A stretch of 64,000 nt of DNA. Source: an uncultured Alphaproteobacteria bacterium. Its GTDB lineage: Bacteria > Pseudomonadota > Alphaproteobacteria > RF32 > CAG-239. The notes beneath the pieces were generated by a model. The model was not told the origin of the DNA. It saw only the letters and a program-made list of their open reading frames with translations, and ran no database searches. This document shows positions 9,927 through 29,435 of the stretch, in pieces (within the stretch, counting starts at the first letter, position 1; the number at the start of each line of letters is the position of its first letter). The DNA lies in contig CALXPU010000007.1 of NCBI GenBank assembly GCA_944390455.1, positions 356-64,355 of the forward strand. Direction: 5' to 3'. The position numbers and the translations under genes were made by a program.

Positions 9927-9949
9927 TTTTAGCGCATACTTTATTTAGA

Positions 9950-9982
9950 AAAAGGCAGGGTTTATTTACCTTGCCTTTTTTG
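9950..9982. terminator. rho-independent terminator closing the r-protein operon (bidirectional; also serves the convergent kinase gene)
   Basis: aaggcaggg-tttattta-ccttgcctt stem (one mismatch) followed by TTTTTT. Lies directly after the rplO stop. Confidence 0.7.
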
Positions 9983-10166
9983 TATTAAGAAAAGCTGTTT
10001 ATGCGTGATTGGGAAATGAAGATGGATAATATGTATGTTTTATTCGCTTATGAATTTCCTAAATGTTTTATAAAGATTATCTCAGGCTTCATCTATATTT
10101 AGAGAGTTTATTTTTCCGCTTATATGGCGAGGAGAAATCTCTATAGTTAAGTGAAATATCCTATAA

Positions 10167-10733
10167 TTAAATCAGAGAATACGAAAAATCATCTTGAGAA
10201 ATTAATCTCAAATCAAATTTATCTGCCAAAGGAAGAATAAATAGCTCAAACTGTTCGTATCTTATCTCCATTCTCTCTCTTGTTAAATCGGCTCCGGCTC
10301 TTGCTCTTTGAACTCTTCTTTTATATTCCGTTTCTTTATCTACTTGCATAAAAATTTTATATGCGTTTTCAAAGCTATCGATAATAAGAGCAACACCGAT
10401 ACCTTCAACAATTATTATATCTGCATTTTTAGAATGAATTGCGTTGTCTAAATATTGGTAATTATAGGCTTCGGGAAAGGTCGAAGCAATGTAAGCCGTT
10501 TTAGGTTTTCCGCTTTTGTCATTATATGTAATGAAGTTATTTTTACGATATGCTTTATCTTTCATATAATTATCAGTACTTATAATGCGGACAGTTTTGC
10601 CGGTAAGCTCTAATTTTTCTTGTAATATTTTTGCAAAGGTAGATTTTCCGGCGCCACCATTGCCGGAAATCAAAACAAACTTATATTTGCCTCTTAAAAC
10701 AGTATTACAAATGCTATCTATAGTTTTTTTCAT
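10167..10733 (-). CDS. P-loop nucleoside/nucleotide kinase-like protein (uridine kinase/PRK-like family)
   Basis: Walker A LISGNGGAGKSTFAK. 188 aa small kinase architecture (…IISTDNY…). 15 nt downstream of the MFS gene on the same strand. Confidence 0.55.
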   Translation of the reverse strand: MKKTIDSICNTVLRGKYKFVLISGNGGAGKSTFAKILQEKLELTGKTVRIISTDNYMKDKAYRKNNFITYNDKSGKPKTAYIASTFPEAYNYQYLDNAIHSKNADIIIVEGIGVALIIDSFENAYKIFMQVDKETEYKRRVQRARAGADLTRERMEIRYEQFELFILPLADKFDLRLISQDDFSYSLI

Positions 10734-10748
10734 ATCTTATCTATATTA

Positions 10749-11951
10749 CTAAAATTTGCTCCATTTATCAAAATAATGATTTAAGCGAATTCCATTAAGG
10801 CTCATTAATGCAACAAACATTGTCAAAAATAATAAGAAGTATTGCAAAATTTCAAAATTTCCATAAAGACCAAACATCAAGAGCATAGTATAACTGACAA
10901 TTCGCCCTAAGCCTAGAAATAGCTCTCTAATTACAAAATACTCATTTTTATATTCAATAACTTCCGGAAGATTAGCGACATTAAACATATTAATATCAAC
11001 AATAACACGCATAAACTGAGTAACGACAATAAAACAAAAATTATAAAAAATAAAACTAACTTTATTTGGAACAAAAATAAATATCAGTACCGAAGATATA
11101 ACCAAGACAGCAGCCAACATTAAAATCTTTACAAAATGATGATATTTACAACAACGACCAAACCAAAAATTAAGAACAATGGTAATTGCATAAAAAGCTG
11201 AACTAATCAATCCCAACTTAAAATCTGTTTTGAATAAATAAATAGTATAAAGCGTAATCAAAGTTCCTAAAGTTCCATCAATCGTCATACCTCGACAAAA
11301 CTCTATTTTATAAAGCTGTCGAACATACACAAGATTTTTAGTTTTTTGCCAAAAGGTTTTTATATCCATCGGCGGAAGTTCTTTTCGTGCAGGAGCTTTA
11401 ATTTGACTAAATAAAATAAATTCAAAAACCGATAAAAAAGCTAAAAAAGCCACAGTTTTGAAATAAGAATCAAAAGTAAGGAAAAAACCTAAAATAAGCG
11501 GAGATGCTACACGAATTATATTTTTCAGACTTTCTAAATATCCCTTGAAAGTAATCATTTTTGAAGCAGGTACATTATCTGCCACAATCAAATTAAATGG
11601 GAATGCCTTACAAGACATAATGATACCAAAAACAATACCGCAAAATGGAATATAACTGATTATATCATCTTGCAAATAAATAAAGAACATAAAGCCAATA
11701 AAGGTCGTAATAATCCCCAACTGATACATTAACAACCTATTGCCACGTTTAATCCAATTTCCGGTTAAATACGCCAAAATTGCTACAAACATATAACAAG
11801 TAAGATGATAAATACTAATATCTGTTACACTTTCTTCTGTCTTTCTGAGCAAAAAAGACACCATAAATGTACCAAGAAAGATATCATAAATCTTATTTAT
11901 GCAATTAGTAATAATGAGTAGATAGGTGTTTTTGTTTGTTTTTTCAGACAT
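10749..11951 (-). CDS. MFS-type polytopic transporter
   Basis: 400 aa, about 12 hydrophobic helices, no soluble domain. Family assignment from topology only. Confidence 0.5.
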   Translation of the reverse strand: MSEKTNKNTYLLIITNCINKIYDIFLGTFMVSFLLRKTEESVTDISIYHLTCYMFVAILAYLTGNWIKRGNRLLMYQLGIITTFIGFMFFIYLQDDIISYIPFCGIVFGIIMSCKAFPFNLIVADNVPASKMITFKGYLESLKNIIRVASPLILGFFLTFDSYFKTVAFLAFLSVFEFILFSQIKAPARKELPPMDIKTFWQKTKNLVYVRQLYKIEFCRGMTIDGTLGTLITLYTIYLFKTDFKLGLISSAFYAITIVLNFWFGRCCKYHHFVKILMLAAVLVISSVLIFIFVPNKVSFIFYNFCFIVVTQFMRVIVDINMFNVANLPEVIEYKNEYFVIRELFLGLGRIVSYTMLLMFGLYGNFEILQYFLLFLTMFVALMSLNGIRLNHYFDKWSKF

Positions 11952-12061
11952 TTATTAGTTATTCCGGTTAAGTTCTTCTTGATAGCGTCGGATAATTTTA
12001 TTCATTAGCGGTTTGCAAAAACGGCAAGAGTTCATTTTATTTTCCTGAAGTTGTTTAGTTA

Positions 12062-12089
12062 TAAACTTTATCTTAAAATATAAAGTTTA
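12062..12089. promoter_or_regulatory. perfect 10-bp inverted repeat TAAACTTTAT-N8-ATAAAGTTTA in divergent promoter region (candidate operator)
   Basis: Directly read from sequence. Located between divergent starts at 11951 (-) and 12148 (+). Confidence 0.4.
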
Positions 12090-12147
12090 ATTTTTTTATA
12101 ATATAAGTGCATGTAGAAAATTTGGTTGTAGAGGAACTGTTGCGACG

Positions 12148-12780
12148 ATGGGGATAAAAGAATTGCTCAAAAAATATAATGAACGATTTATGCAGAATAA
12201 TTCGCATGGGGACGAACTGTGTGAAGAGATTTTTGAATTTACTGATCGCTCTTCTTTATTGATTTTGTCTGCACCGCATTCTACGCGCAGTTTTGTGGCT
12301 AAAAGAGAGAAAATGGCGGATTTGTATACCGGAGCTCTTGTTCAATATCTGGGCGAAAAGCATCATGTATCAACGTTAATTCGCACAAAATATACTCCTT
12401 TTAAAGCGTTGATTTCTGATTGTGTTGTGCAAAAAAATCTCGGAGAACATTATTTTTTAGATATTCATGGATTTAATCAGGAAGTCGGTTATGATATTTG
12501 TCTTGGTACGGGAGAGTTTTCTGAAGAGGCGTATCCATATTTGCAGGGTATAGTGAATATTGCACATCAATTTGGGCTGAAAGCGGTTATTAATCATCCA
12601 AATTATATGGGAAAAATAGGGTTAACCGGAAGGTATCAAAAATTTTATAATAAGCCTAACGTGATTCAAGTGGAATTGAAGCAACATTTAAGAGATTTTT
12701 ATGGACATTTTGATGTGGTTAAAAATATTACTCTTCCTTTTTTTGAACAAATTATTCGTCAGTATCAAGCGAATGAGTAG
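12148..12780 (+). CDS. predicted metal-dependent amidohydrolase, N-formylglutamate amidohydrolase (FGase)-like
   Basis: 210 aa. Motifs LILSAPHSTR and LDIHGF resemble the FGase/HutG-like family. Weak assignment. Confidence 0.35.
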   Translation: MGIKELLKKYNERFMQNNSHGDELCEEIFEFTDRSSLLILSAPHSTRSFVAKREKMADLYTGALVQYLGEKHHVSTLIRTKYTPFKALISDCVVQKNLGEHYFLDIHGFNQEVGYDICLGTGEFSEEAYPYLQGIVNIAHQFGLKAVINHPNYMGKIGLTGRYQKFYNKPNVIQVELKQHLRDFYGHFDVVKNITLPFFEQIIRQYQANE

Positions 12781-12867
12781 TTTTGTTATTTTGTTGAGTT
12801 GCGATAAAATGATTGATAAATTTGAGAGATGATTTATATTTAAAGTGTTCAAATTTAGGAGGCATCA

Positions 12868-13338
12868 ATGTCATATGTTGAAGGTACATTATCTCAAGGG
12901 GAAGAAATTAAAGGGAAAGTTCGGCTGCACTGGATAAACTATCTGTTTACTTGGTTTTTATGTCTTCTGGCTTTTTTATTAGTTTTGCTTTGGTTGTTTG
13001 ATGCTACATGGCGCCAAAGTATAGAAGCTCAGATTTTTGTTGGTGCGGTGGTATTATGGGCTGTTTATGACTATTTACGTTTGGCTACAATTGAAATGGT
13101 GCTTACAAATAAACGTGTGATTTTTAAGAAGGGAATTATTAGTGTTAAAACACAGGAACTGAAAACTAGCAAGATTGAGTCTGTTGAAATTAAGCAATCA
13201 ATATTGGGTAGGCTCTTAGGGTATGGAATGTTGATGTTTTCTGGAACCGGAACGGCTAAAGTTCGGTTTACGGCAGTGGATAATCCATGGGAAGTTAAAA
13301 GTCAGGTAGAGACGATTATTGAAAGTTATGCTAACTAA
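12868..13338 (+). CDS. bacterial PH-domain (YdbS/YdbT-like, bPH_2) membrane protein
   Basis: Two N-terminal TM helices then TNKRVIFKKGIIS…ESVEIKQSILGRLLGYG…, typical of membrane-anchored bacterial PH domains. SD aggagg upstream. Confidence 0.5.
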   Translation: MSYVEGTLSQGEEIKGKVRLHWINYLFTWFLCLLAFLLVLLWLFDATWRQSIEAQIFVGAVVLWAVYDYLRLATIEMVLTNKRVIFKKGIISVKTQELKTSKIESVEIKQSILGRLLGYGMLMFSGTGTAKVRFTAVDNPWEVKSQVETIIESYAN

Positions 13339-13374
13339 ATTGGAACTGGTTTGATTTTTTTAATATGTGTAGGC

Positions 13375-13403
13375 TTGACTTTGCTTAAGTTTTTTGGTAT
13401 AAG
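13375..13403 (+). promoter_or_regulatory. sigma70-like promoter TTGACT-N17-TATAAG
   Basis: Seen in sequence immediately upstream of the 13410/13542 ORF. Confidence 0.45.
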
Positions 13404-13541
13404 CTGAGTATGAGCTTGGCAAACGCTCGGATTGTCCGCCAAAGGGTTCGTTGCCGTTGTTGTTTTTTACATAGATTTCTTGAGATGACTTATTCTGCTC
13501 ATCGGACAGGCAAAGTGGTAAGTTATCAGAAAGGAATTGGT

Positions 13542-14933
13542 ATGCGTAAATATCTTGAATTCTTCCGTGTGGAAGCAAAATCTTTATTAAAAAATTTCCA
13601 GAAAAATGAACAAAGTGCGGTTGCCAGATGTGCAGAAGTTTTTGGCGATAAAAAAGATTTATCGTTGATGAATATGCAACATGTGGTGGCTAAAGAATAT
13701 GGTTTTGACAATTGGAACGCTTTGAATAAAGCTGAAAATTGGCAACTTGCCGAAGTGCTGATAAAATCTAAAAATCAAACATTAGCTATGCCTCTTTATG
13801 CCGATGAAAAAAAGGGGAATGTTTATTCTCGGGCTGAACGCTATGAAGTTGGTTTGATTAAAAGCCGTGCGGGAGTGGATTTAGAAAATTTTATTCAAAC
13901 ATCACCGAATGGTTATGCGTCTCCTTTTTTGCAATTAGAAAGATTTGATTTGTCTGATTATGATTTATCAAAAATGAATCCGTTGTTTGTGTCTTTTGAT
14001 GAGTATACACGTTGGCCGGAAGATGTTGCTAAATTGCCTCAAAACTTTAATCCGCAAAAATTTATGGAGCAAAGAAAAAATCCAGGGCTTGGTATTCGTC
14101 GTTTGCATCGGCAAAATCTTGTTGGTCAGGGGCGTGCGATGGCTGTTATTGATGGTTTTCTATTGAGTGATCATTTGGAATATCATGAAAATTTGAAAGG
14201 TTATGAGAGAATTTGTTCAGATGATTTGGGACATGGTGCTAATGGTGGTGCGTTGGTGTCTGCCCTTGTGGGGAAAACTTGTGGAGTAGCCCCGTTTGCC
14301 GATGTTTATTATTTTTCGGCGCAACAGATGGAAAATAATCATCGGACGCAGCGATATTATGCGCAAGCGTTGCAGAAAATTTGTGATATTCATGAGAAAC
14401 TTCTGCAAAATGGGAAAAACGGTATTGATACGGTTTGCATTTTATGGGGAATTACAAGCCCTGTTTTTCAGCAGGATGACGGTGTATCTGAGATGAAAGA
14501 CGCTCTGGAACGAGCTCATAGCTTAAATATTTGGGTTAATAGCGGTGACTTGAAGTTTGAGGGTAAACTGTGGTCTGAAGGACGGATACATTGTACTTAT
14601 AGCGGAGATTTAGATAATCCGATGGATTATGAAGTGATGCCTAACGCTCCCAAAATTCCTTTAGAAGTTAGTGAATTTTGGAAAAACAGATTATGTTTTC
14701 CGGCTGGTGGTCGCACAGTGACGAGAAATGACAGACTAGATGCTTATGCATTTTCGGCTCCGGGGTTTTATCTCAAGCCTTATGAATGCGGATTGTTTGT
14801 ATTGGCAAGGTGTATCAAAAATGATTTGACACCTGAGGAGTTTTGGAAGTTTTCTCTTGAAACAGGAGATTATCGTGCCGGTATGGGGGTGATTGTTAAT
14901 CCGCAAAAATTGATTGATGCTTTAAGAAAATAA
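13542..14933 (+). CDS. hypothetical protein with subtilase-like Asp/His/Ser motif order (possible S8-like peptidase); alternative start 13410
   Basis: AMAVIDGF…LGHGANGGALVSAL…GITSPVF resemble the D/H/S blocks of S8 peptidases but are degenerate. ATG 13542 has an AAGGA SD, while 13410 has none. Confidence 0.4.
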   Translation: MRKYLEFFRVEAKSLLKNFQKNEQSAVARCAEVFGDKKDLSLMNMQHVVAKEYGFDNWNALNKAENWQLAEVLIKSKNQTLAMPLYADEKKGNVYSRAERYEVGLIKSRAGVDLENFIQTSPNGYASPFLQLERFDLSDYDLSKMNPLFVSFDEYTRWPEDVAKLPQNFNPQKFMEQRKNPGLGIRRLHRQNLVGQGRAMAVIDGFLLSDHLEYHENLKGYERICSDDLGHGANGGALVSALVGKTCGVAPFADVYYFSAQQMENNHRTQRYYAQALQKICDIHEKLLQNGKNGIDTVCILWGITSPVFQQDDGVSEMKDALERAHSLNIWVNSGDLKFEGKLWSEGRIHCTYSGDLDNPMDYEVMPNAPKIPLEVSEFWKNRLCFPAGGRTVTRNDRLDAYAFSAPGFYLKPYECGLFVLARCIKNDLTPEEFWKFSLETGDYRAGMGVIVNPQKLIDALRK

Positions 14934-14991
14934 TGTTATACAAGGGAGAGTGAGTGATTGCTCTCCTTTTTTATGATGTAGAGGAATTTGA

Positions 14992-15471
14992 ATGAGTAAG
15001 AATATTGATATTTTAGTAGCAAATGAAGAAGATGCAGAAGATATTGCCCGCCTTTCTTATCAAGTGGGAAAAATGCATGATGATGCGTTGCCGGATTATT
15101 TTAAACCGACACCCGAAGAAGAACATTTGCGGATTATTCAGAATATGCTGAAAGATGAAAATGCCGTTATTTTTAAAGCAGTAGAGGGTGGTAAAATTTG
15201 CGGGTTTATGTGTATGCTTATTCAAGAAAAATCACGCAATGGTTATGTACATTCCAAAGTTGCTTATATTTATAACTTTGGGGTTGATGAAGCTATGCGA
15301 AGCCGTGGAATTGGCGGAAGGATGCTACAAACAGCCGAGAGCTTTTTACAAACGAAAGGTGTTGAAGCTGTGGAGCTCAGTGTCTTTATGTTTAATCAAC
15401 GAGCTTTGACGTTTTATGAAAAAAACGGATATCGTACATTGGATGTTAATTTGCAGAAAATTTTGAAGTAA
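14992..15471 (+). CDS. GNAT family N-acetyltransferase
   Basis: 159 aa. …YIYNFGVDEAMRSRGIGGRMLQ… is acetyl-CoA binding motif A (R/Q-x-x-G-x-G/A). Confidence 0.75.
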   Translation: MSKNIDILVANEEDAEDIARLSYQVGKMHDDALPDYFKPTPEEEHLRIIQNMLKDENAVIFKAVEGGKICGFMCMLIQEKSRNGYVHSKVAYIYNFGVDEAMRSRGIGGRMLQTAESFLQTKGVEAVELSVFMFNQRALTFYEKNGYRTLDVNLQKILK

Positions 15472-15653
15472 AAATATCTATCAGCAATAAAAAAGGGGGC
15501 GAAGTATCGCACCCTTGCTTTATGCTTTTATTATAAAGAGGTAATTCTTTTTTGTCAAGTTCTTTATTTGCAGTTTTGCTGAAATAAGTTATTGATTTTA
15601 CTGTTTATTTTTATGTATTTTCAAGTTCTCATCAAATTTTGGAGGACTTTTTT

Positions 15654-17603
15654 ATGCAAGAACAGAGAGTTTTTCTTGAAAAGTATAATTTTGTAAAATT
15701 TGAATTAGAAAGAATTAAGTCTTTATGGGGATTGAAAAAGGAGCATGCAGAGCAGAAAAGTAGTTATGATATTTCAATTGGGGAAATTATTAAGGAGATT
15801 TTTTCAGAACTTAAATTGTATGCGTTTAAGCCTTGTAAAAAATTGTTATTAGCAATGGCTATATGTGGGGTGTTGAGTGGGATAACCCCTTATTTAAGAA
15901 TGCTTTATATGGGGGAACTTCCCGAACTTTTAAACGGAACAACCAAGGCTATTATTATTTTTTCTTGCTTTATGGCAATGAGTGAACTTAATGGTTATTT
16001 ATTATCAATTTTTTCTACGCGTTCCAGATTTATTCAAGATGAAATGATGGATTTATATGATAATTCTGTGCGGGCGAAAAATTATGTTGAAATTTTGCAT
16101 AAACCCAGAGCCTTATTTAATGTTAACGGTGTGGGGGGATTGCTTGCTATGGCTGAATCTATATTTAGGTATAAACGCTTTATTTTGGATAGATTGTTCA
16201 TTTCTTATAAAGAGTTTATTTCTTTAGTTGTTTGTACGGCTAGTTTGTTTGCTATTGTTCCGCAGTTGGCGTTGTTTATTTTGTTGTTGCAATTTATTTC
16301 AATGGAGTTTGCTCTTTATAATAATAAGTTTTTTAGAAGAGTTGATGAGCGGTTTCGTTTGTTTTCGGCGAAAGTTTATCGCGAAAACGGACAAATCAGC
16401 AGTCTTGCTTCATTGGTGCAAAGTGCTAATAAGGTGGAAAAAGAAAGTAAACGTGTTTATGCCAGGCTTATGCGTAGTTCCGCTAAATTGCGGTTAAAAA
16501 TCTTTAACCGTTTAATGGGGGAAGAAAGTATTCGCCTAATTTTGGATGCGCTTTTAGCTATTGCGGTTTGCTATGTGGCTATTCGGGATATTATTCAAAC
16601 CGGTGATATCGGACGATTGGCTTTAATTTCCGGTGCGGCGATGCAGATGCAAGGACGTTGGCAGAGTGTATTTCGTTTTTATTTTAATGTGGACGAGTAT
16701 AAAAATTTGGTTGCGGATACCAGAAAACGTATGCAACTTCCTAAAGTTTTAGAAAGAGTTACCGGTAATCATCATTTAAGTGTGGCGGATAATTTTATTC
16801 GCTTGGAAAATGTTAGTTTTGCGTATCCGGCTCTTAAACGTATGGAAGAAATAGGCTATCTAACGGAGATTAAATACGGTGCTACGGTTTTAGAGAATGT
16901 ATCGCTTGATATTCGTGCGGGAGGCGTTACTGTTGTGGCCGGAACTTCAGGGCAGGGTAAATCGACATTAATGAGGCTTATTCGACATGATTATGATGTG
17001 CAACAAGGTAAAGTCTTTATCGGAAGTCAGAATGTTTGTGATTTGCCAGATGAGGAAATTAACAAGCATATTGCTTTTATTGGGCAGAGTGTGCAGTTTT
17101 TTGATGCGTCTATTCGTCGTAATCTTACTTATTTGAGTGATGTAACGGATGAAAAACGTTTGCATGAGGTTTTGGATGCAGTTGGATTAACCGAAGATAT
17201 TGCTAAGTTTGAAGAGGGGCTTGACTATAAAATCGGAATTAATGGGAATAAACTTTCCGGTGGTCAACGACAGAGATTGGCTTTGGCGCGAACTTTATTA
17301 ACCAATCGTCCGATTGTGATTATGGATGAGCCAACAACCGGATTGGATCAGGTTTTGAGCTTTCAGGTGATGAAATCTCTTAAAGAATTGGCAAAGCACA
17401 AAACGGTATTGCTGGTTACACATAATCCAACTGAAATTGCTTTGGCGGATAGGGTGCTGATTATCAAAGATAAACATGTTGTTGCGGATGGGGAACCGTT
17501 GCACCTGGTGACACATTCGGAATTTTTGAAATCGGCAATGACAAAGCAAGATGTGTTGAGTAAACGAGAATTATTTATTGCGCATTGTTTGAAGGTTGCG
17601 TAA
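15654..17603 (+). CDS. ABC exporter, fused permease/ATPase, atypical (paralog of 20689..22956)
   Basis: C-terminal NBD with Walker A GTSGQGKST, signature LSGGQRQRLALAR, Walker B IVIMDEPTTGLD and H-loop VTHNP. N-terminal about 5-6 TM helices plus 70-aa soluble leader. GGAGG SD 8 nt before ATG 15654, whereas the track ORF starts at TTG 15639. Confidence 0.8.
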   Translation: MQEQRVFLEKYNFVKFELERIKSLWGLKKEHAEQKSSYDISIGEIIKEIFSELKLYAFKPCKKLLLAMAICGVLSGITPYLRMLYMGELPELLNGTTKAIIIFSCFMAMSELNGYLLSIFSTRSRFIQDEMMDLYDNSVRAKNYVEILHKPRALFNVNGVGGLLAMAESIFRYKRFILDRLFISYKEFISLVVCTASLFAIVPQLALFILLLQFISMEFALYNNKFFRRVDERFRLFSAKVYRENGQISSLASLVQSANKVEKESKRVYARLMRSSAKLRLKIFNRLMGEESIRLILDALLAIAVCYVAIRDIIQTGDIGRLALISGAAMQMQGRWQSVFRFYFNVDEYKNLVADTRKRMQLPKVLERVTGNHHLSVADNFIRLENVSFAYPALKRMEEIGYLTEIKYGATVLENVSLDIRAGGVTVVAGTSGQGKSTLMRLIRHDYDVQQGKVFIGSQNVCDLPDEEINKHIAFIGQSVQFFDASIRRNLTYLSDVTDEKRLHEVLDAVGLTEDIAKFEEGLDYKIGINGNKLSGGQRQRLALARTLLTNRPIVIMDEPTTGLDQVLSFQVMKSLKELAKHKTVLLVTHNPTEIALADRVLIIKDKHVVADGEPLHLVTHSEFLKSAMTKQDVLSKRELFIAHCLKVA

Positions 17604-17641
17604 TATTCTCTAAATTATTTTTTATTTAGAGGGGAAATGAA

Positions 17642-18325
17642 ATGTCCGGAATTGTTGAAAAAGCATTGTTATTTGCTAAAGAATGTCATGCAGGAGATAA
17701 TTCCGGACATGATTTTGAGCATATTTTGCGGGTGATGGCTAATGCCGAAAAGATTTTGATGGAAGAGCCTCTGGCCGATGCTGAAGCTGTACGTGTGGCG
17801 GTGGCTTTGCATGATGTTGATGATTACAAATTAGGTTCTGACGGTGCTCGGGCTAAAAGTTTTTTATCTGAAATCGGCGCTCAAGAAGATTTTGCTAGAA
17901 AAGTATTGGATATCGTTAGTTCTATCGGTTTTTCTAAATCGGGTAGTCATCCAAATTTTCAGATGATTGAGCAGGCGATTGTATCTGATGCGGATAAATT
18001 GGATGCGGTTGGAGCGATTGGAGTTTGTCGTACAGCTATGTATTCGGCGGCGACAAAACGTCCGCTCTTTAATGAGCAAATTTTTCCGGATGAAAATTTA
18101 ACACCAGAACAATATCAAAACAAAAATCGGGCGACAAACCACGCTATTAACCATTTTTTTGATAAATTGCTGAAACTTAAAGGTGCGATGCAGACAAAAG
18201 TCGGTAAAATGGAGGCGGAAAAACGCCATTTGTTTATGATTGCGTTTTTAAGAGAATTTTTTGATGAAGTGCGAGCTGATGAGTGGCAAGAATATTTGGA
18301 TAAATTCTTAAAACAAATTGCTTAG
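17642..18325 (+). CDS. HD-domain phosphohydrolase
   Basis: H…HD motif: FEHILRV … VALHDVDDYK … DADKLDAVG. Confidence 0.7.
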   Translation: MSGIVEKALLFAKECHAGDNSGHDFEHILRVMANAEKILMEEPLADAEAVRVAVALHDVDDYKLGSDGARAKSFLSEIGAQEDFARKVLDIVSSIGFSKSGSHPNFQMIEQAIVSDADKLDAVGAIGVCRTAMYSAATKRPLFNEQIFPDENLTPEQYQNKNRATNHAINHFFDKLLKLKGAMQTKVGKMEAEKRHLFMIAFLREFFDEVRADEWQEYLDKFLKQIA

Positions 18326-18352
18326 TTTTCTTTCTTTTTTCATGGAATAGTA

Positions 18353-18381
18353 TTGACCTTAGACAAAAAATATGGTATTAT
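18353..18381 (+). promoter_or_regulatory. sigma70-like promoter TTGACC-N17-TATTAT
   Basis: Seen in sequence about 150 nt upstream of the 18534 ORF. Confidence 0.45.
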
Positions 18382-20144: not shown

Positions 20145-20160
20145 ACTTTAAAGAACAATT

Positions 20161-20270: not shown

Positions 20271-20516
20271 TTGGAGCAAGCTATGCTAGATAGAGTTGAT
20301 GCTTTAGATGTAAAACAGTTTCGGGGGCGAAGCGTTTTTTATTACCAGTCTATTCGGCCGTCTATATACAAAGATAATACGTTTAAACGTGGGTATGGTA
20401 ATGATATGTGTTTTGTGGAAGAAAGAACTCAACAAAATGGATATAAAAATGCACGGGCCAGAGTTATTGATGGTGGTGTAGGACGGTTGACCGCATTGCC
20501 ACCGATTTATTGGTAA
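20271..20516 (+). CDS. small hypothetical protein (81 aa)
   Basis: ORF only. Moderate GC. No motif support. Confidence 0.25.
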   Translation: MEQAMLDRVDALDVKQFRGRSVFYYQSIRPSIYKDNTFKRGYGNDMCFVEERTQQNGYKNARARVIDGGVGRLTALPPIYW

Positions 20517-20688
20517 GGTGTTTGTTGTTGCCTTTTGATGGATGAGTATAGCTTTTTGTGACTTGCGTATTGTTGCTTTGAAATTTTTGTTTTATTGACC
20601 TTTTGAGGTCTTTTTTTGTGCTTGTTTTATGTGGTTTTTTGTGGTAAAATCTCTCTAATAGATGCCTAAATGTTAGGGAGATTTGAAA

Positions 20689-22956
20689 ATGGCTCAAGAG
20701 AAAACGAAAGAAAAAAAATCAAATAAAATTCCTAATTTTGCGGAATATGAACGTGAGCGCCTTAAAAATTTGGCAAGTGAAGCGAGGAAAGCTGCTCAAG
20801 AACTCAAATCTGCCGGACAGAAAATAGGAAAAGAAGTTTTGGATGCTCCGGAAAAAAAAGTTAAAGAGAAGGGAACACTTAAAACATCTTGGGAGGTTTT
20901 TAAGGAAGCCTGGGAAAAAACTGGTAAAGATTTTAGAAAATCAGTTGGCTATAAAATGGGAGAATCTGTTTTTCAGGGATTGTTACCATATTGTCAGAAT
21001 TTGTTATTTGGTTCACTTTCGGGGATTGTTGCCGGTACAAGCGGGGCAACAGCTAAATTCTTTGGAGCGGCAGCTCTTAATGTTGCACGACAAAGATTGG
21101 GGGATTTCTGCCGATTTAAATCTAAAATGGCAACGATTGTTTTAAATGATACGCATGCTAATGCCGCTTCTAGTTCTATCTATAAGGATATTCTTCATAA
21201 ACCGCGTCCGTATTTTAAAGATAATGCTCCAGCATCTTTGGGAGGTTTGACATCAGAGATTGTTTCGGCTAAAAATACTTTGCTAAATAAATCAGTAGAA
21301 TGTATGTCTAAAGTGATTGTATTTGGTATTAGTTCTGCTAGTTTAGTGGCTGTTGATCCGATGCTTGCTGCAGGGGTTTTGGGCGTGACTGTGGTTACGG
21401 CAGAATTTGGCGGATATATGAATAAAGTTTATCGTAAACTCAATAGTAAAATGCGTTCTTTTTCTCATAAAATCTCTAAAGAAAATAGTGATTCAATTAA
21501 AAATACACCACTTGTCCAAGATACTAATCGGGTTGAAGTGGAAACAAAGCAAATGGAAAATCGCTTAAATAAAGCTTCTAAAGTTACACAGAAGATTACA
21601 TATGCTAAGAGTAAAGCTTATCTGAAAATGAGTATGGCTATTAATATCGGTATGGAAGGATTAATTATGGCGGCAGCTTTTGCTGATGTGGTTAAAACCG
21701 GAGATATCGGCCGGTTTGCTCTGATTAGCACGGCTTCGTGGCAGATGATGAGCTCTGGGAATATGCTTTCGGAATTTTGGAATGAAATGCAGGCGGGAAC
21801 GCATAGACTTATTGATGCTTCTAAAAAATTGATTACACCAAAAGAACTTGAACGTGTTACAGGTAAAGAAAAATTAACCGAAAGGGATACTAAAATTAGT
21901 GTGCGAAAAGTTAATTTTGCATATCCGCAAATTAAAGATGTTACCGATATGAGCTTGGTTGAGGCCATGGATCGAGAAGGCGAGATTAAAAGAGGCGAAA
22001 ATGTGCTTAAAGATTTAAGTGTTGAGTTTGATAAAGGTTGTTTAACGGCTGTAGTTGGTACTTCAGGTAATGGCAAATCCACGTTGATGAGCCTTATTCG
22101 TCATGATTATGATGCTCAGTCGGGGCAAATATTTATCGGAAATAAGGAAATTCGTGAATTATCTGATGATGAACTTAATGCGCATATTGCGTTTGTGGAT
22201 CAAAATGTACACTTTTTTGATGAAAGCGTGGGGTATAATCTTAAATATTTTAAGCCTGAAGCTACAGATGAAGAACTTATGCAGGCATGCGAAAAAGCAG
22301 GATTTAATCGTGATATTCAGAAGTTTAATGATGGTCTTTCTCATAAAATCGGGCAAGATGGAGCTAAACTTTCTGGTGGACAAAGACAACGTTTGGCGCT
22401 GGCTCGTGTCTTTTTAACCGATAAACCGATAGTGATCATGGATGAACCGACAACAGGTCTTGATCCAAATCTTAGTCTTAAAATTATGAAGTCTCTTAAA
22501 GATATGGCTCAAGATAAAACGGTGATTATGGTGACACATAATCCAACTGAAGTTGCGCTTTCTGATAGAGTGGTTGTGATTGAAAAAGGTGAAATTGCTG
22601 CGGACGGAAAGCCGATGGATTTGATTAAAACCAGTGAGTTTTTGCGTAATGTCTTAACTAAAGATGATATTAAAAACAAAAATAAGCTTTATCAAACCAG
22701 TATTAATGGGGTTAATCCGATGCAGGAGGCTGCAACTGTGCTTAATGAAGAAGCTAACGGTAAAGTTTTGAGCGATATTGAAAGGGCGGAGAAAAGAAAA
22801 CTTTTGGAAGCGCATAAGAGAGCTTATGTTGGGGTTCGCAAGAAAACGCTTGAAAATCAACGTCGCAAGGAAGGCAAACCTTTACCAGAAAAGAAACAGA
22901 GACAACCTCTTAATCCGCCATCAGCTGTATTAAATCGTGGTGGGGCGGAGATTTAA
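20689..22956 (+). CDS. ABC exporter, fused permease/ATPase with long K/E-rich N- and C-terminal tails (paralog of 15654..17603)
   Basis: NBD GTSGNGKST…LSGGQRQRLALARV…IVIMDEPTTGLD…VTHNP. SD agggag 8 nt before ATG 20689. Extended -10 TGgTAAAAT at about 20643-20651. Confidence 0.8.
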   Translation: MAQEKTKEKKSNKIPNFAEYERERLKNLASEARKAAQELKSAGQKIGKEVLDAPEKKVKEKGTLKTSWEVFKEAWEKTGKDFRKSVGYKMGESVFQGLLPYCQNLLFGSLSGIVAGTSGATAKFFGAAALNVARQRLGDFCRFKSKMATIVLNDTHANAASSSIYKDILHKPRPYFKDNAPASLGGLTSEIVSAKNTLLNKSVECMSKVIVFGISSASLVAVDPMLAAGVLGVTVVTAEFGGYMNKVYRKLNSKMRSFSHKISKENSDSIKNTPLVQDTNRVEVETKQMENRLNKASKVTQKITYAKSKAYLKMSMAINIGMEGLIMAAAFADVVKTGDIGRFALISTASWQMMSSGNMLSEFWNEMQAGTHRLIDASKKLITPKELERVTGKEKLTERDTKISVRKVNFAYPQIKDVTDMSLVEAMDREGEIKRGENVLKDLSVEFDKGCLTAVVGTSGNGKSTLMSLIRHDYDAQSGQIFIGNKEIRELSDDELNAHIAFVDQNVHFFDESVGYNLKYFKPEATDEELMQACEKAGFNRDIQKFNDGLSHKIGQDGAKLSGGQRQRLALARVFLTDKPIVIMDEPTTGLDPNLSLKIMKSLKDMAQDKTVIMVTHNPTEVALSDRVVVIEKGEIAADGKPMDLIKTSEFLRNVLTKDDIKNKNKLYQTSINGVNPMQEAATVLNEEANGKVLSDIERAEKRKLLEAHKRAYVGVRKKTLENQRRKEGKPLPEKKQRQPLNPPSAVLNRGGAEI

Positions 22957-22988
22957 TAATAGCTTATACTTTAAGGTTAGGGGCTTGG

Positions 22989-24734
22989 TTATGATTGGAT
23001 AAAGCCGTCTGACTGCAAATTGAATAAATGGTAAAATTTACCGGATTTGTTTTTGAGCAATTCTTGTGGTGCTCCACTTTCTACGATTTTGCCGTGTTCC
23101 AGCACTACTATTCTATCCATGTTTCTTAAAGTTGATAAGCGGTGGGCAATCGCTATAACGGTTTTGTTTTTCATGATGTTTTGTAGAGCCTTTTGGATGG
23201 CTGTTTCTGATTCGCTATCTAAAGCGGAAGTAGCTTCATCTAAAATTAAAATCGGAGTGTCTTTTAGGATAGCTGAGGCTATGGCTATTCTTTGTCTTTC
23301 GCCGCCGGATACCTTAACTCCTCTTTCTCCGACTACGCTTTGATACCCTTTAGGCATTTTTAAGATTGTGTCGTGAATTTGAGCTAGTTTGGCTGCTTTG
23401 TAAACATCTTCATCGGAGGCTTTAGGGTTTGAAAAGCGGATGTTATTTATTATAGAACGATTGAATAAGGTCGGCTCTTGCGGGATAAGGGCTATATGAC
23501 GGTGTAGCGAACTTTGTGTTATCTTGGCAATGTTTTGCTCAGAAATCTGAATTTCTCCTCCTTTTATGTCATAGGCGCGGAGGATTAAATTGATTAGAGT
23601 TGATTTGCCTGAGCCAGATAAACCAACGATACCGACTTTTTCGTTTGCTTTTATTTCTAGATTGAAATCTTCAAATAATGGGGCTTTGTTTTCATAGGCA
23701 AAGCTCATATTTTTTATGGAAATATTGGGCTTGCTTATTTTTAGTTGCTTGGCGTTGGGGGCGTCATTGACTTCTATCGGTTTATAAATGATATTTATAG
23801 CATCTTCTAAACCGCCTAGGTTTTGTTGATAGCGTATGATAAAATCTCCTATTCTATCTATCGGAGATAAAAGTAAATGAATGTATGTCAAGGCAATCAG
23901 AACTTGGCTGATATTGAGATTTTTTGCATGCCAGAAATAAACTAAAATCAATAGAGATATGACGCGTAAGACCATCAGCGATAAGATATTAAAGCTGTTG
24001 GATATGCCTGTTTCTTGTCCTTTTTTGAGGTAACTTCGGACGACTTTTTTCAGTGTTTTGCCTAAGTAAGCCTTTTCATGCAATACAGCGCCGCAGTTTT
24101 TTACTAGGCGGGCATTGGCGATACTGTCTACGATAATTCCGGCAGCTTCCGACTCTAATTGAGCGTTTTCTCTGGAGATTGGTTTTAGGTTTTTGCAGTG
24201 GTAGTAGTTAAAGAAACTTGTTATTACGCAAAAAAAGGTAATGGATGTGGCTAAGCCTTTGTCAACGCTGAATAATATCGGTAAGGCAACTGCATAGGGG
24301 ATAATGACTGCTTCCAATACGCCTTTAAAACTCCAGCAGAGATTTATGGTTTGAAGGACAAGTTGAATAACTTTATTAGATATTTTTCCGGACATTTCTT
24401 CGGTAAAATATGAAGTGGAGTGTTTATGTGTGTACTTGAATGCGTCTTTGTAAATATTGCGTTTTAGAAAAATATCCATGCGAAATTCAAAAATGGTGCG
24501 TAGGCCGTCGCAAATATTTGAGCCAAAATGTAGGGCAGCGTATATGGCAACATAGGTTATAGAAGTGCTGGTTATAATTTGCGTTGGATTTTCAACAATG
24601 TAACCGAACAACGATGCAATGTAGTAATTGTCTAGGTAAATAAATACACGACTGAGCCCAAATAAACCAAAGGTGGCGATGGTGTACAATTTAATTCGTC
24701 TTAAGTATTTGAAAATAAATTTTATTGCGGTCAT
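22989..24734 (-). CDS. ABC transporter ATP-binding/permease protein, MsbA-like exporter (tandem paralog 1 of 3)
   Basis: 6-TM TMD plus NBD (GLSGSGKST, VSGGERQRIAIA, ILILDEATSALD, IAHRL). Confidence 0.9.
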   Translation of the reverse strand: MTAIKFIFKYLRRIKLYTIATFGLFGLSRVFIYLDNYYIASLFGYIVENPTQIITSTSITYVAIYAALHFGSNICDGLRTIFEFRMDIFLKRNIYKDAFKYTHKHSTSYFTEEMSGKISNKVIQLVLQTINLCWSFKGVLEAVIIPYAVALPILFSVDKGLATSITFFCVITSFFNYYHCKNLKPISRENAQLESEAAGIIVDSIANARLVKNCGAVLHEKAYLGKTLKKVVRSYLKKGQETGISNSFNILSLMVLRVISLLILVYFWHAKNLNISQVLIALTYIHLLLSPIDRIGDFIIRYQQNLGGLEDAINIIYKPIEVNDAPNAKQLKISKPNISIKNMSFAYENKAPLFEDFNLEIKANEKVGIVGLSGSGKSTLINLILRAYDIKGGEIQISEQNIAKITQSSLHRHIALIPQEPTLFNRSIINNIRFSNPKASDEDVYKAAKLAQIHDTILKMPKGYQSVVGERGVKVSGGERQRIAIASAILKDTPILILDEATSALDSESETAIQKALQNIMKNKTVIAIAHRLSTLRNMDRIVVLEHGKIVESGAPQELLKNKSGKFYHLFNLQSDGFIQS

Positions 24735-26488
24735 GCTTCTTCTCCATAAGAAAGATAGCCATTGTTTTGGAGCTGATAAAGTTTGTAGAATGTGCCGGAT
24801 TTGTTTTTGAGTAGTTCATCTATGGAACCTTCTTCAATTATCTTGCCATTTTCTAAGACGATTATTCTATCCATGCTTCTTAAGGTTGATAAACGGTGAG
24901 CAATGGCGATAACGGTTTTATCTTTGATGATATTTTGTAATGCCTTTTCTATCATTATTTCCGCTTCACTGTCTAAGGCCGATGTTGCTTCATCCAAAAT
25001 TAAAATCGGAGCATCTTTTAGGATAGCAGAGGCTATGGCTATTCTTTGTCTTTCGCCGCCGGATACCTTAACGCCTCTTTCTCCGACTACGCTTTGATAC
25101 CCTTTAGGCATTTTTAAAATCGTGTCGTGAATTTGAGCTAGTTTGGCTGCTTTGTAAACATCTTCATCAGATGCTTTGGGGTTTGAAAAGCGGATGTTAT
25201 TCATTATGGAGCGGTTAAATAAACTGGGTTCTTGTGGAATTAAGGCTATGTGATGGCGCAACGAACTTTGTGTCACTTCTGTAATATTTTGCTCGGAAAT
25301 CTTAATTTCTCCCCCTTTTATATCATAGGCGCGAAGAATTAAATTGATTAGAGTGGATTTGCCGGAGCCTGATAAACCAACGATACCGACTTTCTCGTTT
25401 GCTTTTATTTCTAGATTGAAATCTTCAAACAATGGGGCTTTGTTTTCATAAGCAAAGCTCATATTTTTGATAGAGATATTGGGGGTGTTTATTTTTAATT
25501 GTTTAGCGTTGGGAGCATCATTTATTTCTATCGGTTTATAGATGACATTTATAGCATCCTCCAAAGAGCCTGTGTCTTGTAAATAGCGAAGAAATGCAGC
25601 TCCTATTTGATTTATGGGGGATAATGCTAACTGAATGTAAGTTAAGGCAATCAGAACTTGGCTGATGTTGAGATTTTTTGTATGCCAGAAGTAAACTAAA
25701 ATCAGTAAAGATATGACACGCAAGACCATTAGGGATGTAGTATTGAAACTGATTGATATTCCTCTTTCGTGTCCTTGTTTTAAATGGCTTTTGATGACTT
25801 TTTTAAGAGCTTTACCTAAGTAAGCCTTTTCATGCAATATGGCACCGCAATTTTTAACTAGGCGAGCATTGGCAATGCTATCCACGATAATTCCGGTGGC
25901 TTCTGACTCTAATTTTGCATTTTCTTTGGATATCGGTTTTAGAATCTTGCTGTGCCAACAGTTGAGGAGACTTGTTATTATGCAAAAAAAGATGATGGAT
26001 GTAGCTAAACCTTTGTCAATACTAAACAATATCGGTAGGGCGACAGCATAAGGAATAATGACGATTTCAAGTATTATTTTAAAACACCCACAAAAATATA
26101 TTGAACTATCTACAAGTTGAATAATTTTATCAGATACTTTTCCGGACATTTCTTCCGTAAAATAAGAAGAGGAGTGTTTATGCGTATGTTTGAATGCATC
26201 TTTATAAATATTGCGTTTTAAGAAAATATCCATGCGAAGTTCTGTAAAGGCACGAATACTATCGATTACGTTTGAACTAAAGTGCAAGAGAGTATATATG
26301 ATAATATAGGTTAAAGAAGTGTTGGTTATTATTTGTGTCGGATTTTCGGCTATATAACCGAATAATGAGGCTATATAATAATTGTCCAGATAAATGAGAG
26401 TGCGTTCAAGGCTATATAAACCAAGTGTTGCGATGGTGTAGAGCTTGATTTGCTTAAAATATTTGAAAATAAATTTTATTGCAGTCAT
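24731..26488 (-). CDS. ABC transporter ATP-binding/permease protein, MsbA-like exporter (tandem paralog 2; mosaic)
   Basis: Same architecture. ATGA overlap with paralog 1. Middle section near-identical to paralog 1, last about 85 codons identical to paralog 3. Confidence 0.9.
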   Translation of the reverse strand: MTAIKFIFKYFKQIKLYTIATLGLYSLERTLIYLDNYYIASLFGYIAENPTQIITNTSLTYIIIYTLLHFSSNVIDSIRAFTELRMDIFLKRNIYKDAFKHTHKHSSSYFTEEMSGKVSDKIIQLVDSSIYFCGCFKIILEIVIIPYAVALPILFSIDKGLATSIIFFCIITSLLNCWHSKILKPISKENAKLESEATGIIVDSIANARLVKNCGAILHEKAYLGKALKKVIKSHLKQGHERGISISFNTTSLMVLRVISLLILVYFWHTKNLNISQVLIALTYIQLALSPINQIGAAFLRYLQDTGSLEDAINVIYKPIEINDAPNAKQLKINTPNISIKNMSFAYENKAPLFEDFNLEIKANEKVGIVGLSGSGKSTLINLILRAYDIKGGEIKISEQNITEVTQSSLRHHIALIPQEPSLFNRSIMNNIRFSNPKASDEDVYKAAKLAQIHDTILKMPKGYQSVVGERGVKVSGGERQRIAIASAILKDAPILILDEATSALDSEAEIMIEKALQNIIKDKTVIAIAHRLSTLRSMDRIIVLENGKIIEEGSIDELLKNKSGTFYKLYQLQNNGYLSYGEEA

Positions 26489-28245
26489 GCTTCTTCTCCA
26501 TAAGAAAGATAGCCATTATTTTGGAGCTGATAAAGTTTATAGAATGTACCGGATTTGTTTTTGAGTAGTTCATCAATGGGACCTTCTTCAATTATCTTGC
26601 CATTTTCTAAGACAATTATTCTATCCATGCTTCTTAATGTAGAAAGTCTATGAGCGATGGCAATCACGGTTTTATCTTTGATGATATTTTGTAATGCCTT
26701 TTCTATCATTATTTCCGCTTCACTGTCTAAGGCCGATGTTGCTTCATCCAAAATTAAAATCGGAGCATTTTGTAAAATAGCGCGGGCAATAGCAATGCGT
26801 TGTCTTTCTCCACCGGAAAGCATTGTCCCTCTTTCACCGACGACGCTATTGTATCCGTGTGGTAAATTCATAATGGTTTTATCAATTTGTGCTAATTGAG
26901 CGGCTTGGCGGATTTGCTCTTCGCTCGCTTGTGAGTTGGTTATACGCAAATTTTCCAAGATACTACGATTAAATAAGGCGGTATCTTGTGAGATAACGGC
27001 AATGTTTTTGTGGTGGGAGCGGAAAGTTAAGTCTTTGATATTTGTTTTGTTTAGCAATATTTCTCCGCTGTCTACATCATAAGCGCGAAGTAATAAGTTA
27101 ATCAAGGTGGATTTTCCTGAGCCGGAATGTCCGACTACTCCAATCTTTTCTCCGGCTTTGATATGTAGATTTAGGTTTTCAAATATCGGTTTGCCTTTGA
27201 TGTATGCAAAGTTTACGTTTTTGAATATTATTTCAGCTTTTGTTGGGCGTATGTTGATGGCGTTTTCTTTTTCTTTGATGTCAATGGGTTGGTTTAGGGT
27301 TGAGAAATTAGCACGAATTCCTCCCAGCTGATCAGATATAAATTGGCAGTAGTTGTTTATGCCCATGGTGGCTAAAACTAAGTTGACCAAGGTGGTGTAA
27401 ACGTAAAACAGATTATCCAGAGCGATATTGTCTTTTTGTGCAAAATATAAGATTAAAAAGATTCCGGAGGTTAAGAATACGGTATCTATTGCATGAAAGG
27501 TAAAACGCGAAACAATTTGATAACGTCCTTGTTCGGCTATGCGTAAAAGGGCTTGTTTTAAGCTTTTGTAAAAATAAAGTTGTTCGCTGAAAAATGATCC
27601 GCTGTATTTGACTAAATTGGCATTGGCAATGCTGTCTACTAAAATGCCTTTGGCTATGTTTTCATAATTTACACGATTTCGGCCTAAATCAAAAAAGTGA
27701 CGATTTACTTTATATACGGCGAAAAAATATGGAATGTTTATTGCAAATAATAGGGCGCTTAGTGATGGACTGAATGTTGCTATAATGGAATAAGATACGA
27801 TTAAAATTCCCATTGGACGGATGAGTAAAAAACAGGTATCCGAGAATAATTGTGTTAAACTCTGGCATAATCCTGTTAGTGCCGATGATATACGACCACT
27901 CATTTCATCATCAAAGTAACGAACGGAATGAGCATGAATTTTGGTGAAAATGTCTGTTACTAAATGACTTAAAAATGTTTGGGAAAAGGCGTCTTTTATA
28001 TATGTGGCGTAGTAGCCGTTTACGAGGGCGCGGATAAGGTAATATCCGACTAATATCAATAAAATTGTGAAACATTGATTGAGCGCTTCGGTTGAGTTTT
28101 TTATTTCAAAGCAACCAACAAGGCGGCTGATAAGCCATGTTTCTAATGGTAAAATGATGCAGGTCAAAATGAATGTAATGCAAAAAAGAATAAACAGTTT
28201 TTTACATTTTTTAAGATTTTTTAATATAAGCGTTCTAATATCCAT
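26485..28245 (-). CDS. ABC transporter ATP-binding/permease protein, MsbA-like exporter (tandem paralog 3)
   Basis: TMD plus NBD (GHSGSGKST, LSGGERQRIAIARA, ILILDEATSALD). ATGA overlap with paralog 2. Confidence 0.9.
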   Translation of the reverse strand: MDIRTLILKNLKKCKKLFILFCITFILTCIILPLETWLISRLVGCFEIKNSTEALNQCFTILLILVGYYLIRALVNGYYATYIKDAFSQTFLSHLVTDIFTKIHAHSVRYFDDEMSGRISSALTGLCQSLTQLFSDTCFLLIRPMGILIVSYSIIATFSPSLSALLFAINIPYFFAVYKVNRHFFDLGRNRVNYENIAKGILVDSIANANLVKYSGSFFSEQLYFYKSLKQALLRIAEQGRYQIVSRFTFHAIDTVFLTSGIFLILYFAQKDNIALDNLFYVYTTLVNLVLATMGINNYCQFISDQLGGIRANFSTLNQPIDIKEKENAINIRPTKAEIIFKNVNFAYIKGKPIFENLNLHIKAGEKIGVVGHSGSGKSTLINLLLRAYDVDSGEILLNKTNIKDLTFRSHHKNIAVISQDTALFNRSILENLRITNSQASEEQIRQAAQLAQIDKTIMNLPHGYNSVVGERGTMLSGGERQRIAIARAILQNAPILILDEATSALDSEAEIMIEKALQNIIKDKTVIAIAHRLSTLRSMDRIIVLENGKIIEEGPIDELLKNKSGTFYKLYQLQNNGYLSYGEEA

Positions 28246-28327
28246 AATAAATAGCCTTAAAAATTTGCGATGTGTGTATAATAGTCAAAAAAATATTTTT
28301 GTCAAGTAAAAAATTAAAAGGAGCTGT

Positions 28328-29344
28328 TTGATGAAGAAAATTGCCATTTTGGTTGTTTTAGTTTTAACGCTCGTGGGAGCTTTTTGGTTTTTAAATCGCT
28401 TGGATTATTCTAAAGTTGCGATTGTTTTACCTTCTTCCGAACGCGCCTCATCTCCTTATTACTATCAAAAAGATGGGGATTTTTTCTTGGCGGATGATTT
28501 AAAACAGGGGTTGCAGAAATTAGGGTACAAAGTTGAGTATAGGTTTCGCGAAAATTATGATGATTTAAATTTGAGTGATATCGGCAATGTGATTTATTTT
28601 AAGGGATATTATAATTTTGAGCATTTGCCGGATGCCGAAAATAAAGACGACGGGCGTAAACGTGTTCTCTATCTCTATTATGTGGAAGGTTTGCATCCTG
28701 AAATATTAAACGAAGTTGATGTGGTGGCTTGTGCTTCGCAAAAGTTTATTAAAGATATGGTTGCTCCATTAGGGGTGGCTACTGCATATATTCCGCAATT
28801 TACTAATCCGGATAGATTTAAGCCGACAGCTAAAGAAATGGATAAGGCTTATACGGTGTTGTTTGTCGGTTCTGACCATTCGGGATTTGGACGCAAAAGT
28901 GTTGATTATGCCGTTTTGGCAGATGCTAACTTGAGTGTTTTTGGCAAGTTTTGGGAAAAAAGTTTGCAACCGGATGTATTAAAAGGGAACTTTATTGAGA
29001 ATAATGACTTGTATCGTTATTATGCAAGTGCGGATATTGTTCTTAATGATCATCGGGAAGATATGAGCTATTATGGATTTATTTCTAACCGAATTTTTGA
29101 TGTGACAGCGTCTGGCGGTTTTGTGCTTACGGATTATTTACCTGAAATTGAGGCAGTTTATGGCGATAGTGTCGCAACTTATAAAGACTATTATGAATTT
29201 AAAGAAAAGTTAGAGTATTATTTGGCTCATCCAGAAGAACGCGCAGTGATGGCTCAGAAAGCTCGTGAGATTACTTTGAAGAACTTTTCTAATGTTAAAA
29301 TTGCGGAAATGTTTGACGCTCTCTTTAAAAATATAAAAAAATGA
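28328..29344 (+). CDS. glycosyltransferase, CgeB-like (DUF3880 / Glyco_trans_1_2-type) with N-terminal membrane anchor
   Basis: N-terminal TM. C-terminal …NRIFDVTASGGFVLTDY… is typical of CgeB-family GT1-like domains. Confidence 0.5.
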   Translation: MMKKIAILVVLVLTLVGAFWFLNRLDYSKVAIVLPSSERASSPYYYQKDGDFFLADDLKQGLQKLGYKVEYRFRENYDDLNLSDIGNVIYFKGYYNFEHLPDAENKDDGRKRVLYLYYVEGLHPEILNEVDVVACASQKFIKDMVAPLGVATAYIPQFTNPDRFKPTAKEMDKAYTVLFVGSDHSGFGRKSVDYAVLADANLSVFGKFWEKSLQPDVLKGNFIENNDLYRYYASADIVLNDHREDMSYYGFISNRIFDVTASGGFVLTDYLPEIEAVYGDSVATYKDYYEFKEKLEYYLAHPEERAVMAQKAREITLKNFSNVKIAEMFDALFKNIKK

Positions 29345-29381
29345 TAAAATCTTTCTCAAAGGCTTGATTTTGTAAAAACGA

Positions 29382-29410
29382 AACACTAACTAACCTATTA
29401 GTTTTAGTGT
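29382..29410. promoter_or_regulatory. inverted repeat ACACTAA-N14-TTAGTGT upstream of groES (possible heat-shock operator; not a canonical CIRCE)
   Basis: Seen in sequence 26 nt upstream of groES ATG. Confidence 0.3.
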
Positions 29411-29435
29411 AACCTATTTGATGGGAGTAATTTAA

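Follow-up and report, generated by a model that had tools for sequence, protein, structure and literature searches.

The end of the ribosomal protein cluster

We analysed a 64,000-nucleotide stretch of DNA from an uncultured gut alphaproteobacterium (contig CALXPU010000007.1 of assembly GCA_944390455.1; hereafter the window), in which a long run of ribosomal protein genes stops at rplO, the gene for ribosomal protein L15. In the canonical S10-spc-alpha superoperon, as found in E. coli and most bacteria, the order continues as rplO-secY-adk-...-rpsM-rpsK-rpoA-rplQ. Like the canonical superoperon, the window has an intact series from rpsJ to rplO in the same order. Unlike it, rplO is followed by a predicted terminator, by ~19.5 kb of unrelated genes (9927–29435; hereafter the block) and then by groESL (Table 1). 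An earlier note on this DNA, made from the sequence alone, had read the locus as an spc operon that ends at rplO, with other genes and groESL in the place of secY to rplQ, and this description proved accurate.

No SecY, ADK, S13, S11, RpoA or L17 domain was detected by Pfam in the window's open reading frames (ORFs) of at least 100 aa. Conspecific contigs, reached via positions 61406–62380 of the window, extended the view to +72 kb, and secY, adk, rpsM, rpsK, rpoA and rplQ were all absent up to that point, that is, for at least 62 kb downstream of rplO. SecY homolog searches, context look-ups and a metagenome scan for the species' own secY gave only other species, in which rplO lies upstream; by calibration, the SecY of the window species is expected to be ~84–87% identical to any SecY query, which would place it at or below the cut after the best 120 matches listed. 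A pentapeptide-repeat protein at ~+64 kb was considered as a marker of the other breakpoint, a similar gene being found after recX in one relative (L099); the 30 aa available showed no similarity, and the candidate was dropped.

The gene order at the junction could be read directly in many samples. The exact 151-aa L15 product is recorded in 101 blocks of the public collection, and we read 22 independently assembled contigs with an identical L15. All 10 distinct contexts shown have the same junction between rplO and the block, with genes other than secY following. One contig (ERZ16268096 scaffold_482) runs from rplO to groES.

The hairpin behind rplO starts ~20 nt past the stop codon and has a predicted folding energy of −21 kcal/mol (z = −4.4), with 0 of 200 shuffled sequences folding as well. 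It was skipped by a simple terminator scan, whose rules on loop and tail excluded it. The first 223 bp past the stop codon, which include the hairpin, are 83–100% identical across all strains and the sister species, and in all of them similarity ends at the same base (10149/10150).

Table 1. Features of the window from rpsJ to groESL (positions on the window)
Feature	Position	Strand	Basis
S10-spc ribosomal protein genes, rpsJ to rplO, intact and in canonical order	566..9926	+	Gene calls and Pfam in identical conspecific contigs; Pfam on S5, L30 and L15
rplO (L15), final gene of the cluster	9471..9926	+	ATG start at 9471; Pfam Ribosomal_L27A
Predicted intrinsic terminator: 14-bp stem, 6-nt loop, then TTTTTT	9948..9985	+	Folding
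Conserved non-coding stretch, ~165 bp	9986..10149		Alignment of strains and sister species (L011)
Strain-variable cassette slot, here kinase and MFS	10150..~12080	-	Content polymorphism; GC 0.29–0.32
P-loop nucleoside-kinase-like gene	10167–10733	-	Pfam
MFS transporter	10749–11951	-	Pfam
Weak FGase-like protein	12148–12780	+	Pfam
bPH_2 membrane protein	12868–13338	+	Pfam
507-aa S8/subtilase-like protein	13410–14933	+	No direct Pfam match; distant homologs with Peptidase_S8
GNAT	14992–15471	+	Pfam
ABC exporter, 654 aa (ABC654)	15639–17603	+	Pfam
HD phosphohydrolase	17642–18325	+	Pfam
536-aa orphan	18534–20144	+	Highest GC3 (GC at third codon positions) in the block, 0.45
Conserved 77-aa ORF, ending ...LPPIYW	20283–20516	+	No family match
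ABC exporter, 757 aa (ABC757)	20683–22956	+	Pfam
Three tandem MsbA/ChvA-like ABC half-transporter genes	22989–28245	-	Pfam
CgeB-like glycosyltransferase (Glyco_trans_1_2)	28328–29344	+	Pfam
groES	from 29436	+	Pfam, synteny
groEL	from 29746	+	Pfam, synteny
Genus-level conserved right flank: glycosyltransferase, groES, groEL	28328..31392	+	Pfam, synteny

The rplO–secY junction across relatives

In a scan with one genome per species, the nearest relatives of the window by L15 were uncultured gut Alphaproteobacteria, with titles including 'uncultured Azospirillum sp.', 'Candidatus Scatocola faecipullorum' (Ca. Scatocola is placed in Rhodospirillales by NCBI) and metagenome-assembled genomes (MAGs) from Hadza, human-gut, rumen and roe-deer samples. 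We take this gut clade to be the GTDB order RF32. Synteny was compared over 10 kb on either side of rplO in 80 species, and a bootstrapped neighbour-joining tree was built from 11 concatenated ribosomal proteins. The compared contigs and species are labelled with L-numbers: L011 is the sister species (98.7% ribosomal-protein identity to the window species), L203, L012 and L085 are genus-level relatives (~94.5%), and L013 and L021 are deeper relatives (87–88%).

Among the other, non-gut Alphaproteobacteria, 62 of 62 species with sufficient sequence have secY after rplO, at a distance of 24–446 bp (median 110). The gut clade shows three states of the junction. About 11 species are canonical with a gap of 96–319 bp, ~9 carry 0.78–3.3 kb between rplO and secY, and nine, including that of the window, have no secY within 10 kb of rplO. 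The two genes are disconnected in every conspecific strain examined and in L011, L203, L012, L085, L013 and L021. The group of the window, L001, L011, L012 and L085 has 100% bootstrap support, and the groups that add first L013 and then L021 have 84% each; all of their members are disconnected. Disconnection was also seen in L015, which nests at 100% with L104, L020 and L016, all of which keep secY nearby, and in L017, which pairs at 100% with the still linked L014. As L015 and L017 thus nest among secY-linked genomes, the rplO–secY link appears to have been lost at least three times independently.

Core genes follow rplO in other disconnected lineages, namely MutS in L085, PGK in L015 and UvrC in L017, which points to chromosomal rearrangements rather than island insertions. 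The cargo of the small inserts is unrelated between lineages and comprises GNAT, NUDIX plus GNAT, a methyltransferase, an HTH protein and orphans. Inserts are present in sisters of disconnected species: L014, the sister of L017, has 3.3 kb between rplO and secY, and L104 and L016, which group with L015, have 3.1 kb and 1.0 kb.

A terminator-like hairpin with a T-run lies 42–69 nt past the rplO stop codon in 28 of 30 gut-clade species, whatever the state of the junction, and the same loose test was passed by 15 of 59 other Alphaproteobacteria. A separate terminator scan also found the hairpin in the canonical relatives L091 and L024. The 'bona fide terminator' that the earlier note had placed after rplO is thus borne out as a predicted hairpin and T-run at a position kept across the clade. 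Because the hairpin is also present where secY still follows, the putative terminator would predate the break and not result from it.

Other joints of the ribosomal protein clusters vary in the gut clade as well. Small ORFs occupy 1.5–3 kb between rpoA and rplQ in L091–L093 (14163–17145), ~7 kb separates the same two genes in L105 (14057–20916), and ~6 kb lies between secY/adk and rpsM in L111/L112. The str-S10 link is likewise missing, rpsJ having no tuf upstream. In the window species, a 151-aa orphan on the opposite strand lies upstream of rpsJ (window 1–565), in L098/L099 NAD synthase precedes rpsJ (1–93), and in L092 EF-Tu is encoded downstream of rplQ on the opposite strand (20311–21353).

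Age of the block and origin of the break

The earlier note had proposed either a genomic island or a rearrangement breakpoint inside the conserved cluster. The breakpoint stood, and it is old; the island did not stand for the whole of 9.9–29.4 kb. For a recent island, inserted as one 19.5-kb piece after rplO and displacing secY to rplQ, speak the heterogeneous, accessory-looking content with its five ABC exporters, the low GC of the segment adjoining rplO and the fact that most of the block is missing from the genus-level relatives L012 and L085. However, the block is not absent from relatives at large, as the same gene order was found in all conspecific contigs examined (10 contexts at rplO and 10 at groES) and in L011. 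In L203, a backbone stands directly after rplO, consisting of the S8-like protein, GNAT, the 536-aa orphan, the 77-aa ORF, ABC757, two ABC exporters and the glycosyltransferase, with 41–78% protein identity; the sequence of this relative ends within the glycosyltransferase gene. The segment from the 536-aa orphan to ABC757 is 41–65% identical in L203 and kept in 10 strains. In L085, the ABC pair is retained, and the 536-aa orphan has a weak homolog (~21% identity). In L012, rplO is followed by ~3.6 kb and then by the glycosyltransferase, groES, groEL and an autotransporter gene, the stretch from the glycosyltransferase to groESL being all that is kept. The FGase-like, bPH and HD genes occur only in the window species and L011 (the first two are absent downstream of rplO in L012, L085 and L203), and ABC654 only in the window species, L011 being without it. 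Ten strains agree over the right half, which starts at the 536-aa orphan and continues past groESL, and differ there only in ABC copy number (2 versus 3).

The composition of the block is native. GC, GC3 and codon-usage distance lie within the range of the other window genes and resemble those of the flanking housekeeping genes; the kinase and MFS genes (GC 0.29–0.32) and, for GC3, the 536-aa orphan (0.45) are the exceptions. No integrase, transposase or recombinase domain, no tRNA gene and no meaningful flanking repeat was found for the block, and relatives without the block show the rplO–secY disconnection as well. Together, these data largely refute the recent-island reading, which we consider very improbable. 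The block is a mosaic of different ages, not one island. The earlier note had itself named shared gene order with the same intervening genes in close relatives as the sign of an older arrangement, and this is largely what conspecifics, L011 and the backbone of L203 have, although L012 and L085 differ. Since relatives share it, the arrangement is best seen as ancient and lineage-wide, at an operon boundary that already existed.

The region is flexible at the genus level, and a small slot within it truly varies between strains. Within the window species, the accessory variation next to rplO is this slot of ~2 kb, for which at least five configurations were found among contigs with 99.3–100% identical ribosomal proteins. 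It holds the kinase and MFS genes in the window, L007, L001 and L010 (in L010 together with HIT), an AP-endonuclease-2 fold protein with a different MFS and the kinase in L002 and L005, and the AP-endonuclease-2 fold protein with the kinase in L003, to which L004 adds MBL and HIT. In L006, L008, L009 and L011, the slot is ~0.75 kb long and has no kinase. The identical kinase was found at no other site. As in classical islands and hotspots, the contents alternate between strains, GC is low and one border is fixed. Unlike these, the slot has no integrase, tRNA gene or direct repeats and is just 0.75–4 kb long, and the remaining ~17 kb of the supposed island are vertically inherited and native in composition.

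These features raise the question of whether the site behind the rplO terminator is targeted as an active, site-specific integration hotspot or merely tolerates insertion. Targeting would fit the left junction of the cassettes, which falls on the same base in all strains and the sister species, the number of cassette variants within one species and the ~9 independent insertions in the same spacer across the clade. However, we found no recombinase, repeats or att-like sequences flanking the slot, where repeat matches were short and at chance level, and the cassettes share modules, with the kinase in most of them, a pattern suggestive of genes gained and lost step by step through homologous recombination. 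In addition, relatives carry insertions at rpoA/rplQ and adk/rpsM, which a general relaxation fits better than one targeted site, and we regard a hotspot as unlikely. A trivial cause would be a mis-assembly or mis-binning that produced a chimeric contig: the source and all relatives are metagenomic, and conserved regions such as ribosomal protein clusters can be mis-joined in assembly. Yet the junction recurs in every context shown, although samples and assemblers differed, there are contigs that reach unbroken from rplO to groES, and related species have the same break in diverged sequence, so that an artefact can be given next to no weight.

We therefore favour an old, inherited rearrangement at a terminator and operon boundary that is common to the clade, with the interval filled later by ordinary chromosomal genes, and assign this reading a probability of about 0.8. 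Throughout the gut clade, the S10-spc transcription unit would end at the intrinsic terminator ~50 nt past rplO; with that end, secY-adk-rpsM-rpsK-rpoA-rplQ would form a separate unit. Insertions and rearrangements may have been tolerated in the rplO/secY spacer, many times over, because it was already an operon boundary. A chromosomal rearrangement at this point would have parted secY-rplQ from rplO in an ancestor of the family-level lineage to which the window belongs, and by the genus level rplO would have come to lie a few kb upstream of the glycosyltransferase gene and groESL. The interval would then have been filled and remodelled by genes of different ages, namely the genus-level backbone and the additions found only in the window species and its sister (FGase-like, bPH, HD and ABC654, the last not in L011), while one slot behind the terminator, with kinase and MFS here, would still be varying between strains. 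A further step, that the ancestral terminator itself made the rplO/secY junction a recurrent site of insertion and rearrangement, with a slot that is still active, would account for at least three disconnections and ~9 insertions in this clade versus none in the 62 others; we put it forward tentatively, at rather less than even odds.

Several observations weigh against the favoured reading of an old rearrangement. Termination at the rplO hairpin and a promoter for secY are predictions from sequence, and scans for promoters in canonical relatives, made on the stretch from the terminator to secY, did not rise above the shuffled background. Every relative is a MAG, and the tree is a neighbour-joining tree of 11 proteins. 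Because the searches did not recover secY-rplQ of the window species, an insertion of more than 62 kb is formally inseparable from a translocation or inversion. Downstream of rplO, one weak homolog (31% identity) is all that L013 and L021 have in common, so that it is parsimony that favours one ancestral break for the clade of the window. Finally, neither blastn nor tblastx detected similarity downstream of rplO between L015 and L104 or L016, or between L017 and L014; as the sisters share no cargo, 'insertion first, then disconnection' would be only a possible order of events.

Comparable cases have been described. In a survey of Gammaproteobacteria and Bacilli (Brandis 2021, PMC8046335), only one species, Bacillus selenitireducens, had secY outside spc; the survey also reported insertions at the rpoBC-str and str-S10 joints with full disconnection in related species, and suggested that insertions relax the selection for synteny. 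The gut clade resembles these cases in that genes have been inserted between units of the cluster and related species are fully disconnected. It differs in that the rplO/secY link was broken at least three times and invaded ~9 times within one alphaproteobacterial clade, and in that a clade-wide predicted terminator would precede the events. Of what a model of this type leads one to expect, small inserts are present in relatives of disconnected lineages (L014 for L017; L104 and L016 for L015; 100% bootstrap each); disconnected lineages have not kept the cargo of their sisters, which again weighs against the favoured reading.

The S10-spc-alpha cluster is a textbook case of gene-order conservation, and its breaks are so few that they are catalogued singly. 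The break described here is real, old and recurrent in one host-associated clade, and the clade-wide predicted terminator offers a concrete, testable reason for failure at this junction here and not elsewhere. As an exception to a well-known rule of synteny, the break is clear-cut and repeated, and the terminator would be a plausible enabling feature, but similar cases have been described before, and the evidence comes from MAGs and predicted terminators. If more than passive tolerance were involved, through targeting next to the terminator or, in slow-growing gut symbionts, through relaxed selection for expressing secY and rpoA together with ribosomal proteins, the clade would be a natural experiment on cluster cohesion. 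In practice, annotation, binning and marker-gene pipelines should allow for secY-rplQ not being contiguous with rplO in these gut lineages, and a housekeeping cluster broken by odd genes should not be called an island before relatives are checked.

Gene content of the block and other parts of the window

The genes that the earlier note had listed between rplO and groESL were confirmed by Pfam, including the count of five ABC exporters. Against NCBIfam, these exporters showed only generic MsbA/ChvA/T1SS-like similarity, all below curated cut-offs, with no specific equivalog. ABC757 is a paralog of ABC654 (37% identity over the full length). The tandem ABC array has three copies in some strains and two in others (L181–L190), the middle copy being missing in some. 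The middle gene (24731–26488) is a mosaic, 74–97% identical to the gene at 22989–24734 over its first ~1500 nt and 93–96% identical to that at 26485–28245 over its last ~290 nt. The variation in copy number and the mosaic structure suggest unequal crossing-over or gene conversion.

The subtilase motif noted earlier in the 507-aa protein agrees with its distant homologs, which carry Peptidase_S8 (PF00082), the S8 homology being reached via intermediates only. Of the catalytic motifs, that of Asp is kept and that of His is ambiguous, but conservation does not extend to the GGxSWxxP serine motif, and the protein is probably inactive. PDB sequence searches with both orphans gave nothing. Gene calls include the 77-aa ORF in each of the ten strains read around groES, and in L203 as well.

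The S8-like protein, GNAT and an ABC exporter (ABC650) are also clustered, away from rplO, in a more distant relative (L204/L205; L204 10001–15571). As the trio thus occurs at two unrelated chromosomal sites, it is probably a functional module. Lantibiotic-type modules similarly pair an S8 protease, LanP, with an ABC exporter, LanT, and the conserved 77-aa ORF ahead of the second exporter adds to the likeness. In contrast to LanP/LanT, the S8-like protein apparently lacks the catalytic serine motif, no precursor peptide or modification enzymes were identified here, and none of the ABC exporters corresponds to a specific NCBIfam equivalog. This is a resemblance, not membership, and a role of the trio in peptide processing and export would be a guess by analogy.

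The window has a GC content of ~37% and a GC skew that is positive throughout. No tRNA genes were found within its 64 kb, and an Rfam scan of positions 1–32 kb gave no matches. Directly behind groEL, the mechanically called ORF of an autotransporter (31337–34906, + strand) opens with a GTG and overlaps groEL at its end; the genes called in conspecific contigs have later starts and products of 1121–1184 aa, and the length of the passenger domain varies between strains. infA, encoding a 73-aa protein with an eIF-1a domain, lies away from the ribosomal protein clusters at ~54555–54776 (− strand), flanked by a BOF-domain gene and a gene for a histidine kinase, a position taken from gene calls in the conspecific contig L197. 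At 47680–53520 (− strand), three GtrII-like glucosyltransferase paralogs, the first separated from the second by a gene for a family-2 glycosyltransferase, probably form a surface-glycan modification cluster.

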